Below the pieces are notes generated by a model. It was not told the DNA's origin. It saw only the letters and a program-made list of their open reading frames with translations, and did no database searches. Made by a program: the position numbers and the translations under genes. A DNA stretch of 64,000 nt from a phage, in the sequence record PZ445489.1. One strand, 5' to 3'. Within the stretch, counting starts at the first letter, position 1. Each line of letters opens with the position of its first letter. This document shows, one piece after another, positions 1,870 to 56,201 of the stretch.

Positions 1870-3086
1870 TGGGTTTTAAAAGCTGGATTACTGAAAAGCT
1901 AAATCCGGGTCAACGTATTATAAGAGACATGGAACCAGTTAGTCATCGCACTAACCGTAAGCCTTTTACCACTGGACAAGCCTACAGTAAAATTGAGATT
2001 CTCAATAGAACTGCTAATATGGTTATAGATAGTGCGGCGGAGTGTTCTTATACTGTCGGAGATAAATATAATATTGTTACGTACGCTAATGGCGTCAAAA
2101 CAAAGACTCTAGACACTCTCTTAAATGTACGACCTAATCCATTCATGGATATAAGCACATTCCGTAGACTTGTAGTCACTGACCTACTTTTTGAAGGTTG
2201 TGCATACATCTATTGGGATGGCACATCGCTTTACCATGTCCCGGCCGCTCTTATGCAGGTCGAGGCAGATGCCAATAAGTTTATCAAAAAATTTATATTT
2301 AATAATCAGATAAACTATCGCGTAGATGAGATTATCTTTATAAAGGATAACAGTTACGTGTGCGGCACAAATTCTCAAATTTCTGGACAATCTCGTGTTG
2401 CTACTGTTATTGATTCTCTTGAGAAGCGTTCCAAGATGCTTAACTTTAAAGAGAAATTCCTCGATAACGGAACCGTGATTGGTCTTATTCTTGAAACGGA
2501 TGAAATCCTGAACAAGAAATTGCGTGAGCGTAAACAAGAAGAATTACAACTCGATTATAATCCTAGTACTGGTCAGTCTTCTGTCCTGATTCTAGATGGT
2601 GGTATGAAAGCTAAACCGTACTCCCAAATATCCTCTTTTAAAGATCTAGACTTTAAGGAAGACATCGAAGGATTTAATAAATCTATTTGTCTAGCCTTTG
2701 GAGTTCCGCAAGTACTGCTTGATGGTGGTAATAATGCGAATATTCGACCAAACATCGAATTGTTCTATTATATGACTATCATTCCTATGCTGAACAAACT
2801 GACTAGTTCTCTTACTTTCTTTTTTGGTTATAAGATTACTCCTAATACTAAGGAGGTAGCTGCATTAACACCAGATAAAGAAGCTGAGGCTAAACATTTA
2901 ACCTCATTGGTTAATAATGGTATTATGACTGGTAACGAAGCTCGTTTAGAGCTGAACCTTGAACCTTTAGATGATGAGCAGATGGATAGGATTCGTATTC
3001 CTGCTAACGTTGCTGGTTCTGCAACAGGTGTATCTGGTCAAGAAGGTGGTAGACCTCAAGGTTCCACCGAGGGAGATAAAGAATGA
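1869..3086 (+). CDS. Portal protein
   Basis: 405 aa directly after terminase and before protease/capsid; size and position as in T5-like phages. Confidence 0.8.
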   Translation: MGFKSWITEKLNPGQRIIRDMEPVSHRTNRKPFTTGQAYSKIEILNRTANMVIDSAAECSYTVGDKYNIVTYANGVKTKTLDTLLNVRPNPFMDISTFRRLVVTDLLFEGCAYIYWDGTSLYHVPAALMQVEADANKFIKKFIFNNQINYRVDEIIFIKDNSYVCGTNSQISGQSRVATVIDSLEKRSKMLNFKEKFLDNGTVIGLILETDEILNKKLRERKQEELQLDYNPSTGQSSVLILDGGMKAKPYSQISSFKDLDFKEDIEGFNKSICLAFGVPQVLLDGGNNANIRPNIELFYYMTIIPMLNKLTSSLTFFFGYKITPNTKEVAALTPDKEAEAKHLTSLVNNGIMTGNEARLELNLEPLDDEQMDRIRIPANVAGSATGVSGQEGGRPQGSTEGDKE

Positions 3087-3577
3087 TTGATTATAATGGT
3101 CTAAAGACCATTTTTGGTGAAAAACTACCAGAATCTCATATCTTCTTTGCTACGGTTGCTGCGCATAAATATGTTCCTAGCTATGCTTTTCTGCGTAGAG
3201 AACTAGGGCTTTCATCTGCGCATACTAACCGTAAAGTATGGAAGAAATTTGTAGAGGCTTATGGTAAAGCAGTTCCTCCTGCTCCACCGGCCCCACCGTT
3301 AACTCTTTCTAAAGATTTAACTGCTAGCATGTCGGTTGAAGAGGGAGCAGCATTAACACTTTCTGTTACTGCAACTGGTGGTACTAGTCCATATACTTAT
3401 GCATGGACTAAAGATGGTTCTCCTATTCCGGAAGCTTCAGGAGCTACCTATACTAAGCCTGCAGCAGCTACGGAGGATTCTGGAGCCTATAAAGTAACTG
3501 TAACAGATAGTAAGCAAGTAAGTAAGGATTCTACTGCATGTGCTGTGACAGTTAATCCTACTGTTCCTGGAGGCTAA
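3083..3577 (+). CDS. Head decoration protein with C-terminal Ig-like domain (pb10-like)
   Basis: 164 aa; PPAPPAPP linker followed by Ig-like segment (YTYAWTKDGSPI...GAYKVTVTD); overlaps portal stop. Confidence 0.65.
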   Translation: MIDYNGLKTIFGEKLPESHIFFATVAAHKYVPSYAFLRRELGLSSAHTNRKVWKKFVEAYGKAVPPAPPAPPLTLSKDLTASMSVEEGAALTLSVTATGGTSPYTYAWTKDGSPIPEASGATYTKPAAATEDSGAYKVTVTDSKQVSKDSTACAVTVNPTVPGG

Positions 3578-3580
3578 TAA

Positions 3581-4213
3581 ATGACACAAGCTGCTATTGA
3601 CTATAACAAGTTAAAATCAGCACCCGTTCATTTAGATGCTTATATTAAATCTATTGATAGTGAATCCAAAGAGGGCGTTGTAAAAATACGTGGATTCGCT
3701 AATACAATTAGTAAAGATCGCGCTGGCGATGTAATCCCTGCTTCCGCATGGAAAACATCTAATGCACTTACTAACTATATGAAAAACCCGATTATTCTTT
3801 TCGGACACGATCATCGTCGTCCAATCGGTAAGTGTATTGATCTTAACCCTACTGAAATGGGTCTCGAAATCGAATGCGAGATCTATGAAAGTTCTGACCC
3901 GGCTATCTTTTCACTAATTAAAAACGGTGTACTGAAAACTTTTAGTATCGGATTCCGCTGCCTAGATGCAGAGTGGGATGAAGCTACTGATATATTTATT
4001 ATTAAAGATTTAGAACTATACGAAGTTTCGGTAGTTTCTGTACCTTGTAATCAGGACTCAACGTTCAATCTCGCTAAGAGCATGAATGGTCATGATTATA
4101 CTGAATGGCGTAAATCTTTTACTGCAATAAGTTCTAAAGCTGTCCCAGCTCAAGAACGTAATCTTTCTGAACTAGAAAAACTTGCGATAGCTTTAGGCTA
4201 CGTTAAAGAATAA
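3581..4213 (+). CDS. Prohead maturation protease (HK97-type)
   Basis: 210 aa; DRAGDVIPASAW and ILFGHDHRRPIG motifs typical of prohead protease family; sits between decoration and capsid genes. Confidence 0.8.
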   Translation: MTQAAIDYNKLKSAPVHLDAYIKSIDSESKEGVVKIRGFANTISKDRAGDVIPASAWKTSNALTNYMKNPIILFGHDHRRPIGKCIDLNPTEMGLEIECEIYESSDPAIFSLIKNGVLKTFSIGFRCLDAEWDEATDIFIIKDLELYEVSVVSVPCNQDSTFNLAKSMNGHDYTEWRKSFTAISSKAVPAQERNLSELEKLAIALGYVKE

Positions 4214-52002: not shown

Positions 52003-52035
52003 GGCCTGGGTATGAAAATACTCGGGCCTTTTCTA
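52003..52035 (+). terminator. Rho-independent terminator upstream of nrdA promoter
   Basis: CCTGGGTAT-GAAA-ATACTCGGG hairpin (with G-U pairs) followed by TTTTC. Confidence 0.55.
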
Positions 52036-52049
52036 TCAGAAAATTTTAT

Positions 52050-52078
52050 TTGCCTAATGACCAATAATAATGTAGAAT
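52050..52078 (+). promoter_or_regulatory. Sigma70-type promoter for nrdA
   Basis: TTGCCT-17 nt-TAGAAT. Confidence 0.55.
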
Positions 52079-52116
52079 ATTCCTTAAATCCTGATAACTA
52101 TAAAAAGGAAAGCCAA

Positions 52117-54447
52117 ATGAGCCATCGCATTGAAAAAGTAATTAAACGTGACGGTACTGTAGAAGACTTTGCTCCTGAAAAACTCAATGGTTGGGCAGAG
52201 TATGGTTGCAAAACAGTTGATGTAAGTTGGTCAGCCATTACTATGGCTGCTCAAAAAACTCTACCTAAAGGGGTTGTAGATTCCGACACTCTGATGGACG
52301 CATTAATTAAAGCTGCTGAAAGTCTTATCAAAGATAATCCAGCATACGATGTGCCAGCAAAGGAATTACGTCTTGCGCAAATGCGTAAACGCCTTTATGA
52401 TTCTTTCGAACCACCCTCTCTACGCTTCTTCCATGACCATATGGTTAGCGTAGGTGCATGGGAAGACATGAGTGCATGGATTACCGATGAGCAATTTGAA
52501 GCTCTGAATCAGGTTATAGACCACGATCGTGACCGTCTTTTTACTAGTGGTGGACTGAAGCAGTTCTTTGATAAGTATTCCCGTCGTAACATAGCCACTG
52601 GTGAAATTTACGAAACCCCGCAGTTTGCCTACATGGGTATGGCAATGGCGATGTTATCTCAACCTAACTGGACAATTCTAGATGCAATCGACCTCTACAA
52701 CGCAATGTCACTCCACAAAATCAACGTTCCTACGCCGCCACTGGTTGGTCTGCGCTCTAGTGACCGTGGATTTGCTAGTTGCTGCCTCGTGGATTCCACT
52801 GACACGTTGGATTCAATCGACACCGCCGAGCACATCGTCTTCAAAATGGTCGCAGCCAGAGCGGGAATCGGGTATCATCTTGAAAGCCGATCAATTGCTG
52901 ATCCGGTGCGAAATGGGGCATTCCCACATTCCGGAAAACTGCCATATTATCGACACATTGACCGCTCAGTAAAGGCCAATACTCAGCAAACTCGTGGTGG
53001 TTCTGCCACAGTGTCTTATCCATACTTCGACCCTGAAATCATTCAATTGATGCAGGTTAAGCAACAACGTGCTACAGATGAGAATAAAATCGATAAGATG
53101 GATTATTCTCTGAGCTTTAACAATCTTTTGTTAAAACGTTATCTTAAAAACGAGGATATTACGCTAATGTCATACTTCTATGCTCCAGAAGTTCATGAAG
53201 CGTTTTATAGTGATGACGAGGCTAAATTTGAAGAAATCTACGTGGCAGCGGAGAAACGTGTGGCATCTCTTACAAAGATCGACCACGAAGGAAAAACAGT
53301 TCCTGCAGCTCCTAAAGTCTCTGCAAAAGAAATCCTAGATACTTGGCTACGTATCCGAATGGAAACAGGACGTATGTATGCTCATCACATCGGGGAATCT
53401 AATCGTCACGGTAACTTCCTTGATCCAATCCGTATGACAAACCTTTGTGTTGAAATTACTCAGCCTACGCGCCCGTTCCATCATATCACAGAACTGTATA
53501 AGACAAAAGAGCAGCTTGATCAAATGAAGCCGGAGGATATTGGTGAAGTATCTCTGTGTAACTTAGGTGGTGTTGTACTGGGGCGCATGGAATCTCTGGC
53601 TGAGTGGGAAAAAACTTGCTACATCCTCCTGAAATTCGTTGATACAATTATTGAAATTCAGGATTATCCGTTCCCAACTATGGAATATACGGCTAAGAAA
53701 CGTCGTAATGTTGGTATTGGCCTAATGAACGCAGCAGGTGCAATGGCAGCAGAAGGTCTGGCTTATGAAGGTATTGAAGCCCGTAACTGGATTCACCGTG
53801 AGGCTGAAAAACTGTCCTACTTCCTGCATAAAGCCTCTGTACGCCTAGCTAAAGAACAGGGTGCATGTGAGTGGTTTGATCGTACTAAACCATCTAAAGG
53901 AATTCTGGTAATCGACACGTACAAGAAAACTGTTGATGAACTGGTATCCGTAGGTCTAGAAATGGATTGGGAGTCTCTGCGTGCAGATATTCTGAAATAC
54001 GGTATGCGTAACTCTGTTCTGACTGCTCAGATGCCAGGAGAAAGTTCTTCTGTTCTGTTAGGTGTTACTAATTCTATTGAACCGCCTCGTAAGATTGTAT
54101 CTATCAAGGGTAGTGCAGTGAATAAAGTAATTGCAATTGCTCCGGGTGCAACCGATTGGGAAACGTTAATGAGCTATAAACTGGCTTATGATGTAGATCG
54201 TATCGAGTGGATCAAATGGGTAGCAACTATGCAGAAATTCTTCAGTCAGTCTATCAGTACGAATATGTACTATGACTACACCAAGTTTGAGAATGAAATC
54301 ATTCCTGGTCCAGTAGTAGTTCGTGATTTCATGACTGCTGTTAAGTATGGGTGGAAGACTTTCTACTACGCAAACTTCAACACCGCTAATGGTGGTGGTG
54401 CAGGGGAAGAATCCGCAGGCTGCGCTTCTGGTGGTTGTACCATCTAA
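52117..54447 (+). CDS. nrdA: Ribonucleoside-diphosphate reductase alpha subunit (class Ia)
   Basis: N-terminal ATP-cone, catalytic cysteines, C-terminal CASGGC tail; start at ATG 52117 with AAGGAA RBS (track extension covers terminator and promoter). Confidence 0.9.
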   Translation: MSHRIEKVIKRDGTVEDFAPEKLNGWAEYGCKTVDVSWSAITMAAQKTLPKGVVDSDTLMDALIKAAESLIKDNPAYDVPAKELRLAQMRKRLYDSFEPPSLRFFHDHMVSVGAWEDMSAWITDEQFEALNQVIDHDRDRLFTSGGLKQFFDKYSRRNIATGEIYETPQFAYMGMAMAMLSQPNWTILDAIDLYNAMSLHKINVPTPPLVGLRSSDRGFASCCLVDSTDTLDSIDTAEHIVFKMVAARAGIGYHLESRSIADPVRNGAFPHSGKLPYYRHIDRSVKANTQQTRGGSATVSYPYFDPEIIQLMQVKQQRATDENKIDKMDYSLSFNNLLLKRYLKNEDITLMSYFYAPEVHEAFYSDDEAKFEEIYVAAEKRVASLTKIDHEGKTVPAAPKVSAKEILDTWLRIRMETGRMYAHHIGESNRHGNFLDPIRMTNLCVEITQPTRPFHHITELYKTKEQLDQMKPEDIGEVSLCNLGGVVLGRMESLAEWEKTCYILLKFVDTIIEIQDYPFPTMEYTAKKRRNVGIGLMNAAGAMAAEGLAYEGIEARNWIHREAEKLSYFLHKASVRLAKEQGACEWFDRTKPSKGILVIDTYKKTVDELVSVGLEMDWESLRADILKYGMRNSVLTAQMPGESSSVLLGVTNSIEPPRKIVSIKGSAVNKVIAIAPGATDWETLMSYKLAYDVDRIEWIKWVATMQKFFSQSISTNMYYDYTKFENEIIPGPVVVRDFMTAVKYGWKTFYYANFNTANGGGAGEESAGCASGGCTI

Positions 54448-54455
54448 TATTAACA

Positions 54456-54478
54456 AGGGGACATACGTCCCCTTTATT
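54456..54478 (+). terminator. Rho-independent terminator after nrdA
   Basis: AGGGGAC-ATAC-GTCCCCT hairpin followed by TTATT. Confidence 0.7.
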
Positions 54479-54506
54479 AGACCTTCTATGGCTGTAATTT
54501 TAAATT

Positions 54507-54989
54507 ATGGAAGAAAAATACAAAGAAATAGTGGGGTTATTTGATTATAATCCAGAAACAGGGATATTTACCCATAAAGCTAGAGAAGATAAATCCTTCA
54601 ATACTAGATTTGCTGGCAAAGAAGCTGGTTCTCTAGAAAAATGCTCTGGATATATTGTAATGCAAGTAAAAGGCACTAAGTATTACGCGCATATCCTAGC
54701 ATTCCTTATCGTTAATGGGTATATTCCAAAGGAAGTAGATCACGATAATAGAATACGGCACGATAACCGAGCTATTAATTTAAAGGCCTCTGACAGACAC
54801 AGTAATGGTAAAAATGTCGGGGCGCACAAAGATAATAAATTAGGTATTAAAAATATTCACCAAAAAGCGAGTGGATCTTACCAGGTACAGATAGCCCGTA
54901 AAGGTGTAAAATATACTAAAACATTCAAAGAACTTGAGGATGCTATAGAGTGGCGCGATATGAAACTATTGGAGCTTGATAGTTTATAA
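54507..54989 (+). CDS. HNH homing endonuclease with AP2-like DNA-binding domain
   Basis: 160 aa; HNH core DHDNRIRHDNRAINL; C-terminal segment resembling AP2-type domain; inserted between nrdA and nrdB. Confidence 0.7.
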   Translation: MEEKYKEIVGLFDYNPETGIFTHKAREDKSFNTRFAGKEAGSLEKCSGYIVMQVKGTKYYAHILAFLIVNGYIPKEVDHDNRIRHDNRAINLKASDRHSNGKNVGAHKDNKLGIKNIHQKASGSYQVQIARKGVKYTKTFKELEDAIEWRDMKLLELDSL

Positions 54990-54995
54990 TTTTAC

Positions 54996-55024
54996 TTGCT
55001 AATCGCTACCAGATTTGCTATAAT
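54996..55024 (+). promoter_or_regulatory. Sigma70-type promoter for nrdB
   Basis: TTGCTA-17 nt-TATAAT. Confidence 0.6.
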
Positions 55025-55055
55025 ATTCCTGAAATAGTGAGAAAGAGGAAAATCA

Positions 55056-56201
55056 ATGACTACTTTACTAAACCTGAATTGGGATCATACTAATGCTGAC
55101 CTTTTCCTGGGAGATTCTCTCGGTATCGCAGATTATGTACGTGTAGCACATCCAGAACTAGAACGTCTGGCACTTCTGCAACGCTCTCAATTTTGGACTG
55201 AAACTGAGATCAGTCTGGAAGCAGATAAGAAACAATGGCCTAACCTCCCACGGGAAATTCAGGAAATTACACTCCTGAACTTAGCATGGCAGACTCAAAC
55301 AGACTCCTTTATCAGTCGTGCTCCTGAAGCAGCTATTATGCCACTTGTAAGTCGTCCAGAATTGGAAGGTATGCTCAAACAGTGGAGCTATTTTGAAGAC
55401 CTGCATAGTCGTGCTTATAGCAATATTATTCGTAATGTGCTGACTGACCCAGCAGAATTTATTGATTCTGTAACCAAAAACCAAGAAGCATTCGCACGCA
55501 TCGCTGATTCTGTTGAACTATTCGATGAACTGTACCTGTTAGGTCAGTATTTCATTGCAGTACGCGATCATCGTGGCGACAATACATACCCAGAAACTGA
55601 GTTCCCTGAAGTTAAACGTGAAACTCAGGCTAAACTATTAGACGCTTACTTTGCGATCTACGGTCTGGAAGCAATGCAGTTTTACGCATCCTTTGCATGT
55701 ACCTTTGCATTAGCAGAGAATGATATTCTGCAAGGTATTGCTAAAAATCTGCAATTAATCGCTAAAGATGAAGCTCTGCATACTCAGATGTCCAAAGCAA
55801 TCATCCAGATTATGTTTCAGCAATTTGACAAAGATCTGGTAGATGAAGCAGTGGCTAAAGCACCAGCACAGCTCCTGAAAACTCTGAAAACTGAAATTGA
55901 ATGGGGTCATTTCATTTTCAAAGGTCGTAGTCTGATTGGCTTGAACGCAGAACTTCTAGAAGAATATCTGTACTTTGTGGGGCGTAATGCATTTATGCAC
56001 ATTGGTGTAGAATGGCCTAGTCACTTACCAGTAATCACCAAAAACCCTATTCCGTGGATCATGAACTGGTTGGATACTACTTCTCTACAGCCTGCTCCAC
56101 AAGAAATTCAGATTGGTGCAGCTTACCGTGTAGGTCAGGTAACTGAGACATCTACTGATACTCTGAAAGATCTGGGTAATGAATTTGGAGATTTCTTATG
56201 A
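55056..56201 (+). CDS. nrdB: Ribonucleoside-diphosphate reductase beta subunit (class Ia)
   Basis: 381 aa; di-iron ligand EDLH-type motifs and radical-site tyrosine region. Confidence 0.9.
   Translation: MTTLLNLNWDHTNADLFLGDSLGIADYVRVAHPELERLALLQRSQFWTETEISLEADKKQWPNLPREIQEITLLNLAWQTQTDSFISRAPEAAIMPLVSRPELEGMLKQWSYFEDLHSRAYSNIIRNVLTDPAEFIDSVTKNQEAFARIADSVELFDELYLLGQYFIAVRDHRGDNTYPETEFPEVKRETQAKLLDAYFAIYGLEAMQFYASFACTFALAENDILQGIAKNLQLIAKDEALHTQMSKAIIQIMFQQFDKDLVDEAVAKAPAQLLKTLKTEIEWGHFIFKGRSLIGLNAELLEEYLYFVGRNAFMHIGVEWPSHLPVITKNPIPWIMNWLDTTSLQPAPQEIQIGAAYRVGQVTETSTDTLKDLGNEFGDFL

Follow-up and report, generated by a model that had tools for sequence, protein, structure and literature searches.

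A probable free-standing homing endonuclease gene of the HNH-AP2 family in the nrdA-nrdB spacer of a T5-like phage

The two genes of ribonucleotide reductase, nrdA and nrdB, are separated in the phage sequence record PZ445489.1 by a small open reading frame (ORF). The stretch analysed, 64,000 nucleotides long, is called the window here, and all positions refer to it. Is this ORF a working homing endonuclease gene (HEG), the remnant of one, or a nuclease gene that the phage has put to another use? A preliminary description had read it as an HNH-AP2 homing endonuclease, inserted between nrdA and nrdB with its own terminator upstream and its own promoter downstream. The features of the locus are collected in Table 1.

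Table 1. Features of the nrdA-nrdB junction in the window.
Feature	Position	Strand	Details
nrdA, class Ia ribonucleotide reductase large subunit (left flank)	52012-54447	+	811 aa; Pfam Ribonuc_red_lgC, E=2e-119
Recoded, HEG-linked nrdA 3′ tail	54405-54447	+	encodes ...GEESAGCASGGCTI and stop; C-terminal CX4C cysteine pair
Hairpin after nrdA, intrinsic-terminator-like	54455-54480	+	8-bp stem, loop AUAC, tail UAUU
Type A HEG, free-standing	54507-54989	+	160 aa ORF, stop codon included
HEG N-terminal module, aa 1-58	54507-54680	+	two small beta hairpins and helices; AlphaFold pLDDT 90-98 there
HEG HNH (His-Me finger) nuclease core, aa 59-103	54681-54815	+	D78-H79...N87...N91...N100
HEG AP2-type DNA-binding domain (predicted), aa 112-159	54840-54983	+	three strands, one helix
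Resident nrdB promoter and nrdB leader with ribosome-binding site	54990-55055	+	backbone, outside the element
nrdB, ribonucleotide reductase small subunit (right flank)	55056-56201	+	381 aa; Pfam Ribonuc_red_sm, E=2.2e-35

On sequence grounds the window belongs to a T5-like phage (Demerecviridae). Its junction region was 97.6% identical to that of Salmonella phage vB_Si_CECAV_FGS017, and the HEG protein was 99.4% identical to an annotated HNH endonuclease of the same phage (FGS017). Both flanking genes were complete around the HEG, and the nrdA product additionally matched Pfam lgN and, weakly, the ATP-cone. The G+C content of the ORF was 35%, compared with 43% for nrdA and 42% for nrdB. The ORF was assigned to PHROG 99 ('HNH endonuclease') at E=4e-49, and an exhaustive HMMER search with its protein returned 35,504 cluster representatives at E<=1e-3. 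Judged by these matches, the ORF is a genuine gene rather than a product of chance, and it belongs to a very large family of phage HNH proteins. An Rfam scan of 54300-55200 gave no match to an intron or structured RNA at E<=1. The gene was classed as free-standing because it is intergenic, with the nrdA stop on its left and the nrdB promoter on its right, has no Rfam intron around it and leaves nrdA and nrdB complete. No paralogues of it were found elsewhere in the window by tblastn. A role of the protein as the maker of the T5 genomic nicks was considered and dismissed, the gene being missing from most T5-like phages.

The nuclease core was recognised directly. Pfam HNH_3 (PF13392) matched aa 59-100 of the protein at E=5.5e-9 (36.0 bits, cut-off 24.8). 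An alignment of 45 HEG homologues of similar length was used as the source of a family profile; HNH_3 matched 45/45 of these sequences, D78, H79, N91, N100 and N103 were invariant among them, and N87 was nearly so. When the family profile was compared with the PDB, it found the catalytic region of I-HmuI at E=1.8e-6 (segment 'vvDHkdGNkdNNlstNLRwvTqkiN'), with the catalytic residues of the HEG lined up with the DH...NN...N segment of that enzyme. Lack of the HNH catalytic residues on alignment would have told against the preliminary description; they are present. A phmmer search of the PDB with the single HEG sequence returned nothing at E<=10. The AlphaFold2 model of the protein had an overall pLDDT of 90.9 and contained a beta-beta-alpha-metal fold made of strands 76-79 and 92-95 and helix 97-102. 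The top PDB match of the model in Foldseek was I-HmuI again (1U3E; probability 1.0, 154 columns, ~21% identity).

The C-terminal domain was recognised through relatives. Pfam AP2 (PF00847) did not match the HEG protein, either at full length (E<=1) or with the C-terminal 56 aa alone (E<=10). The AP2 assignment was therefore established through homologues, the family profile and the structure model. PF00847 matched 27 of the 45 aligned homologues (best E=2.8e-10), and in ten homologues that were mapped individually the matches fell on the columns equal to aa 112-159 of the HEG. Against AP2 domains in the PDB the family profile scored between E=1.9e-10 and 5.6e-4, its matches including the plant domains of WRI1 (E=1.9e-10), TEM1 (2.3e-6), AtERF1 (5e-4) and ERF096. 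The model of the C-terminus consisted of strands 117-119, 125-131 and 134-140 and helix 143-159, and the AP2 domain of TEM1 (7ET5) was superposed on it by Foldseek with an rmsd of 1.8 Å over 39 columns. Further Foldseek matches were PfAP2 and the arm-binding domain of lambda Int. The HNH-AP2 label given at the outset is accordingly borne out by different routes for its two halves, HNH_3 by Pfam itself and AP2 by homologues, by profile comparison with the PDB and by structure prediction; as a statement about the family, and as read from sequences and models, the architecture is firmly assigned. The N-terminal module is modelled as resembling the N-terminal DNA-contacting region of I-HmuI. It is also the variable half of the protein, which distinguishes subtype A from subtype A2.

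The junction was matched by 445 records of the phage collection, mostly of Tequintavirus and Epseptimavirus. Representatives were classified by sequence and each state was counted with diagnostic queries; GenBank/RefSeq duplicates are present in the collection, so the counts are of records and not of independent lineages. An empty nrdA-nrdB spacer of 106 bp was found in 251/445 records. The HEG of the window (type A, subtype A2 included) occupied the spacer in 48/445, type B (T5 hegH or 'P-TflVIII', T5p093) in 75/445, type C (the AKFV33 orf096 type, found also in Klebsiella Sugarlandviruses) in 33/445 and type D (the SH9 type) in 34/445. These five states total 441/445, the paralogous types B-D together making up 142. 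Some HEG filled the spacer in about 44% of the records, and 56% had no gene there. The four types were 31-45% identical to each other, and the HNH-AP2 architecture was common to all of them. Type A was present in both Tequintavirus and Epseptimavirus. A tblastn search with the window protein gave 48 records at >=60% identity, all others falling below 60%. This number equals that of the occupied type A junctions, from which it follows that, by sequence, close relatives of the window HEG are confined to the nrdA-nrdB site. Comparison of the junction across T5-like genomes had been proposed as the check on the homing reading, and universal presence of the gene as what would refute it. The comparison revealed a clear presence/absence polymorphism, with 251 empty junctions to 48 of type A, and empty-site alleles are abundant. 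The gene between nrdA and nrdB is optional.

The positions of the insertions were read against the empty allele, in which the order is nrdA stop, GGAGATC-TTCG-GGTCTCC plus TTTTTCTTT, TTGCTA-17-TATAAT, a leader with a ribosome-binding site, and nrdB. Type A is inserted left of the nrdB promoter, between the nrdA terminator and that promoter. Its right boundary lies at TTTTACTTGCTAATC..., which is the same in empty and occupied alleles, and in place of the native terminator type A alleles have a different hairpin, by replacement or by divergence. Types B and C are inserted right after the -10 box, where they replace the nrdB leader and keep the native terminator and promoter; type D is placed like them, judged from its nrdB leader. 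The insertion of types B-D is ~70 bp right of that of type A and abuts or overlaps the nrdB start. Co-occurrence was examined for types B and C with chimeric queries in which the 3′ end of type A was followed by the promoter and then by the 5′ end of type B or C. No record with type A and B, or A and C, was found at >=80% coverage among ~440 matching records. As far as these sequences go, type A never co-occurs with B or C in the collection despite the separate insertion points.

The claims about regulatory signals fared less well. The promoter downstream of the HEG had been described as belonging to it. It is the resident nrdB promoter, a sigma-70-like TTGCTA-17-TATAAT with a TG extension at 54996-55024 (scan), and this region was identical in the empty allele of phage JLBYU40 and in all type A alleles. 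The T5 and AKFV33 alleles also keep the promoter through TATAATAT, and their HEGs come after it. The terminator upstream, likewise said to be the element's own, stands at the nrdA terminator position that is common to all alleles, here with an allele-specific sequence. In the window this is a G+C-rich hairpin at 54455-54474, AAGGGGAC-AUAC-GUCCCCUU followed by UAUU, with a fold of -19.4 kcal/mol (z=-3.3) and a core of GGGGAC-ATAC-GTCCCC at the DNA level. EPS7-like type A alleles carry GGGGC-GAAA-GCCCC and S113 carries GGGGC-TCTC-GCCCC, and the hairpin of S124 is longer and unrelated. The terminator of empty and B/C alleles is GGAGAUC-UUCG-GGUCUCC followed by UUUUUCUUU. The U-tract of the window hairpin is poor, weaker than that of the empty allele, and a consensus scan called the window palindrome on the minus strand only. 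We interpret the hairpin as a leaky terminator, which probably attenuates read-through into the HEG.

No promoter for the HEG was called by the consensus scan between this terminator and the ATG, and no Shine-Dalgarno sequence was visible before the start. A solitary TATAAT stands 22 nt before the ATG in some type A alleles, with no acceptable -35 by eye; the window has TTCTAT there. From its sequence the gene appears promoterless. Expression by read-through from nrdA transcripts, the arrangement known from a T4 analogue discussed below, is suggested because the gene shows no promoter or Shine-Dalgarno sequence of its own; we hold it tentatively, at a little under even chances. A hairpin that would sequester the start codon (window ~54483-54513) was predicted and was set aside, as it is not conserved in EPS7-type alleles.

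Traces of recent movement were sought in the flanks. The empty-site phage JLBYU40 is 97.7% identical to the window in the flanking sequence. Between positions -375 and -43, counted from the nrdA stop, the two had no mismatches, whereas the last 42 nt had 11, ten of these 11 at third codon positions. The conserved nrdA C-terminus ...GCASGGCTI was retained, with most of its codons recoded. Over the whole comparison 11/42 positions differed in the tail and 27/1758 upstream (Fisher p=2e-10). Past the HEG the two phages were identical from the promoter to nrdB +152, with the first mismatch at +153. They differ by a sharply bounded patch, in which the window has the HEG, another terminator and the 11 nrdA changes, most of them synonymous. 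Taken alone, this pair is compatible with either gain or loss of the HEG.

Most other type A alleles gave a similar picture, with mismatches clustered in the last 40-105 nt of nrdA. Compared with the nearest non-A allele, most differed by 1-2% over -1500 to -200 but had 10-25 mismatches in the last ~100 nt. In Bombadil (type A) and GRNsp8 (type B) nrdA was identical from -1500 to -200 (1300 nt), and the HEGs differed. Types B and C showed the opposite side, with 29-37 mismatches to the nearest empty allele within nrdB nt 6-126/186, an interval in which most type A alleles had none. Such side-specific clusters would fit co-conversion around a site-specific break. They suggest that type A acts at the nrdA tail and terminator, and that types B and C act at nrdB, as MobE of T4 does. 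The nrdA 3′ tail is a candidate co-conversion or immunity tract and, in alleles lacking the HEG, a candidate target region. Empty alleles, too, vary in the nrdA tail, where they have >=3 haplotypes, so the recoded tract could also reflect the history of the donor rather than target immunity. A target of the enzyme in the nrdA tail or terminator is, on the sequence evidence, put at slightly under even chances.

Taken as a whole, the sequence evidence makes it probable that the ORF is a free-standing HEG of an I-HmuI-like HNH_3 plus AP2 family which still functions or did so until very recently. The homing endonuclease reading of the preliminary description draws support from the empty sites and the intact catalytic residues, the activity being a predicted one. 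The following course may be proposed. In a mixed infection with a T5-like phage that lacks the HEG, the enzyme would be made at a low level by read-through from nrdA past the leaky terminator. Its N-terminal module and AP2 domain would together recognise an extended site, and the HEG-less allele would be nicked or cut, most likely in the conserved nrdA 3′ tail or the native terminator segment, a region that differs in all type A alleles. Repair of the break by recombination with the HEG-plus genome would then bring in the HEG along with the recoded nrdA tail (co-conversion), and the converted allele would be immune to the enzyme. Whether the break would be a nick rather than a double-strand cut is nearly balanced, and nicking is put forward with some reserve.

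Selection on the protein bears on what else the gene might be. All 12 of the 12 type A copies extracted were intact at 160 aa, and pairwise dN/dS among type A copies was 0.02-0.06, with dS up to ~1.3. By this measure the HEG protein is under strong purifying selection. Such constraint would also be expected of a domesticated nuclease or DNA-binding protein, which might exclude or degrade rival T5-like genomes, or tune nrd expression through its AP2 domain near the nrdB promoter. The HEG immediately adjoins that promoter, the exclusion of B and C by A across ~440 records is compatible with competition between phages, and nucleases have been reported at boundaries of genetic exchange (PMC10448857). 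However, the 56% of related records without any gene, and the interchangeable paralogues carried by others, make no essential or lineage-wide benefit evident. A benefit in competition would moreover use the same cut-and-convert mechanism and be an added consequence more than an alternative. Domestication is accordingly regarded as improbable.

The same constraint speaks against a decaying, inactive remnant that is kept only by its linkage to the essential nrd genes. Degeneration does belong to the life cycles of HEGs, and the spacer offers two cases: in phage H8 the AP2 helix is lost to a premature stop (a draft record, possibly in error), and in phage SB6 part of the HEG is duplicated in tandem. 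Read from sequence, both are signs of the usual HEG life cycle. The weak expression signals point the same way. Against this stand the intact copies and the low dN/dS though dS is near saturation, the invariant catalytic residues, and near-identical genomes that differ by presence or absence of the HEG with sharp boundaries. A remnant is therefore very improbable, and the gene is better read as a functional or recently functional HEG.

The window HEG itself proved to be mosaic. Its aa 1-72 were 89% identical to phage SP01 (the EPS7/SP01 subtype A) and 50% to S124 (A2), whereas its aa 73-160 were 98% identical to S124 and 94% to SP01. By these identities the HEG of the window, like that of FGS017, is a recombinant with an A-like 5′ half and an S124/H8-like 3′ half. 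That T5-like phages recombine freely and differ mainly in their HEG content (PMC10644984), that the defunct I-TevIII of T4 is mobilised in trans by another nuclease, MobE (PMC2790892), and that the window HEG is recombinant would all agree with a patchy distribution produced by ordinary homologous recombination or by trans-mobilisation rather than by the HEG's own activity, but no B or C HEG stood beside type A in any record tested, and mismatch clusters that are sharply local and on a side specific to the HEG type are better explained by a site-specific break than by random crossovers, which leaves this reading hardly credible.

Within the homing interpretation a further reading of the spacer may be considered, that of a battleground between two guilds of HNH-AP2 HEGs, which would sit on opposite sides of one promoter, attack opposite target genes, evict each other and be retargeted through their N-terminal modules. 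If it were true, the targets would be the nrdA tail and terminator for types A and A2, and the 5′ end of nrdB for types B, C and D. Eviction by co-conversion would then explain the absence of A+B and A+C in ~440 records, and swaps of the N-terminal module (A versus A2, and the recombinant in the window) would retarget specificity in an arms race. As a whole this reading is unlikely, though it keeps an appreciable chance.

The gene itself is ordinary and already known, a textbook-style free-standing HEG beside ribonucleotide reductase genes, and it matters little beyond its correct annotation. The modest value of the locus is comparative: five states in public genomes, two insertion points around one promoter, divergence tracts specific to the HEG type, and apparent mutual exclusion. 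With phages that are easily grown, the spacer is a convenient natural system for the study of HEG competition and co-conversion, and it could help to define the recognition sites of the HNH-AP2 enzymes of the T5 group.

Among known systems, the closest are orthologues of the gene itself. The 'H-N-H endonuclease F-TflVI' of EPS7, the HNH endonuclease of FGS017 and g086 of phiR2-01 are the same gene at the same site, with 90-99% amino acid identity, and orthologues have already been annotated as HNH or homing endonucleases in EPS7, FFH1, phiR2-01, FGS017 and others. No paper on 'F-TflVI' was found, and the EPS7 name looks like a transfer from a T5 gene and not like that of a characterised enzyme. 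A literature search for a biochemical or genetic cleavage test of the HEG protein or its close relatives found none. The next relatives are T5 hegH, AKFV33 orf096 and the SH9-type HEGs, which have HNH_3 and an AP2-like C-terminus, are 36-45% identical to the window HEG, and lie in the same 106-bp spacer, where they are equally optional. Divergence at the 5′ end of nrdB accompanies the T5 and AKFV33 types, whereas with the window HEG it is the nrdA tail that diverges. A parallel with mobE has been drawn for the nrdA-nrdB interval of T5-like phages, which was described as a hot spot for HEGs (AKFV33 paper, 2012, PMC3326045). T5-like genomes are recognised to vary mainly in their HEG content (PMC10644984), and HEG content has been described in general as unstable at conserved positions near essential genes, which include ribonucleotide reductases (PMC10448857).

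More distantly, by profile and model, I-HmuI of Bacillus phage SPO1 (PDB 1U3E) is the nearest structural relative of the HEG. In both, an N-terminal beta-strand DNA-contacting region precedes the HNH core. I-HmuI is a strand-specific nickase, and its C-terminus is a helix-turn-helix-type domain, not AP2. It is intron-encoded, whereas the window HEG is free-standing. The AP2 domain sets a further comparison: in the HEG it is predicted to be the DNA-targeting module of a nuclease, whereas the plant AP2/ERF proteins are transcription factors. The window protein has diverged too far for Pfam AP2 to recognise it.

The closest functional analogue, by analogy of position and putative regulation, is MobE of T4, which is not a member of the family. 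Homology of the HEG to MobE was rejected, with a BLASTP E of 1.8 and an hhalign probability of 0.1% for the family alignment. MobE is a free-standing HNH endonuclease of the nrdA-nrdB interval whose gene is promoterless, co-transcribed with nrdA and regulated by a terminator (Wilson and Edgell, 2009, PMC2790892), and it makes a strand-specific nick in nrdB (PMC2790892). Like mobE, the window HEG is a free-standing HNH gene that lies between nrdA and nrdB in a lytic coliphage and is optional among relatives. From its sequence it also appears to lack a promoter of its own, and upstream of it is a predicted intrinsic terminator that may modulate read-through; both genes are tied to polymorphism tracts in an adjacent nrd gene. 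They differ in the side of the tract, since MobE nicks nrdB and the tract linked to the window HEG is the nrdA 3′ tail, and in the phage family, Straboviridae for MobE and Demerecviridae for the window HEG.

Over 1300 nt of nrdA (positions -1500 to -200, counted from the stop codon), the Epseptimavirus phages bombadil (locus L044) and GRNsp8 (L010) were identical. The homing endonuclease genes (HEGs) that accompany this sequence differ in type (A in bombadil, T5-like B in GRNsp8) and in insertion point. The combination of identical nrdA sequence with different HEGs implies that one HEG replaced another very recently. Phage SP01 (L004) was found to carry a type A HEG, yet nt 6-126 of its nrdB gene, counted from the start, have the haplotype that elsewhere goes with type B HEGs (compared with the type B loci L008 and L025). 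This mismatch suggests that the site once held a type B HEG or that the allele has been through recombination.

Irregular HEG copies were seen in two phages. The type A HEG of Salmonella phage SB6 (L002, MK809530) is partly duplicated in tandem (see table), and both copies are annotated there as separate CDS labelled 'homing endonuclease'. The A2-subtype HEG of Escherichia phage H8 (L007, AC171169, about 2960-3477) contains an AAA-to-TAA change that ends the protein ahead of the AP2 helix. This truncated HEG is either a decaying copy or a sequence error, AC171169 being of draft quality.

Annotation of nrdA was also uneven. Its start is inconsistent among the deposited genomes, with CDS of 2436, 2394 and 2337 nt, and the window ORF starts 35 codons 5' of an alternative start (see table). 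The gene is split into two annotated CDS in phiR2-01 (L046, 812-3148) and annotated as a truncated CDS in EPS7 (L045, 1165-2394); frameshifts, sequencing errors or annotation problems could account for both.

Positions of the alternative nrdA start and of the duplicated SB6 HEG
Feature	Sequence	Position	Remarks
Alternative nrdA start, MSHRIEKVIKRDG...	window	about 52117	precedes ATP-cone; extra upstream stretch 52012-52116
HEG copy 1 (5')	SB6	2204-2530	cut off inside HNH motif
HEG copy 2	SB6	2502-2984	complete, own leader upstream

An RNA hairpin, CCUUCUAUGG...UUAUGGAAG, was predicted at 54483-54513 of the window and would sequester the HEG start codon. EPS7-type alleles have not kept this hairpin, so that its significance is doubtful. 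The terminator hairpin at 54457-54472 of the window, GGGGACATACGTCCCC, has its exact reverse complement, GGGGACGTATGTCCCC, in phage FGS017 (L039, about 3158-3173), whose junction region is 97.6% identical to that of the window; either the hairpin flipped or its loop acquired two substitutions.

Among type C alleles, an intact HEG ORF of ~163 aa was found in Klebsiella phage Spivey (L003, about 3489-3980), but its annotation is limited to a CDS of 228 nt. In type C alleles, as at 1895-1935 of AKFV33 (L009), the HEG ATG follows the -10 box of the promoter of nrdB by only 6 nt, and the HEG mRNA would therefore be nearly leaderless.
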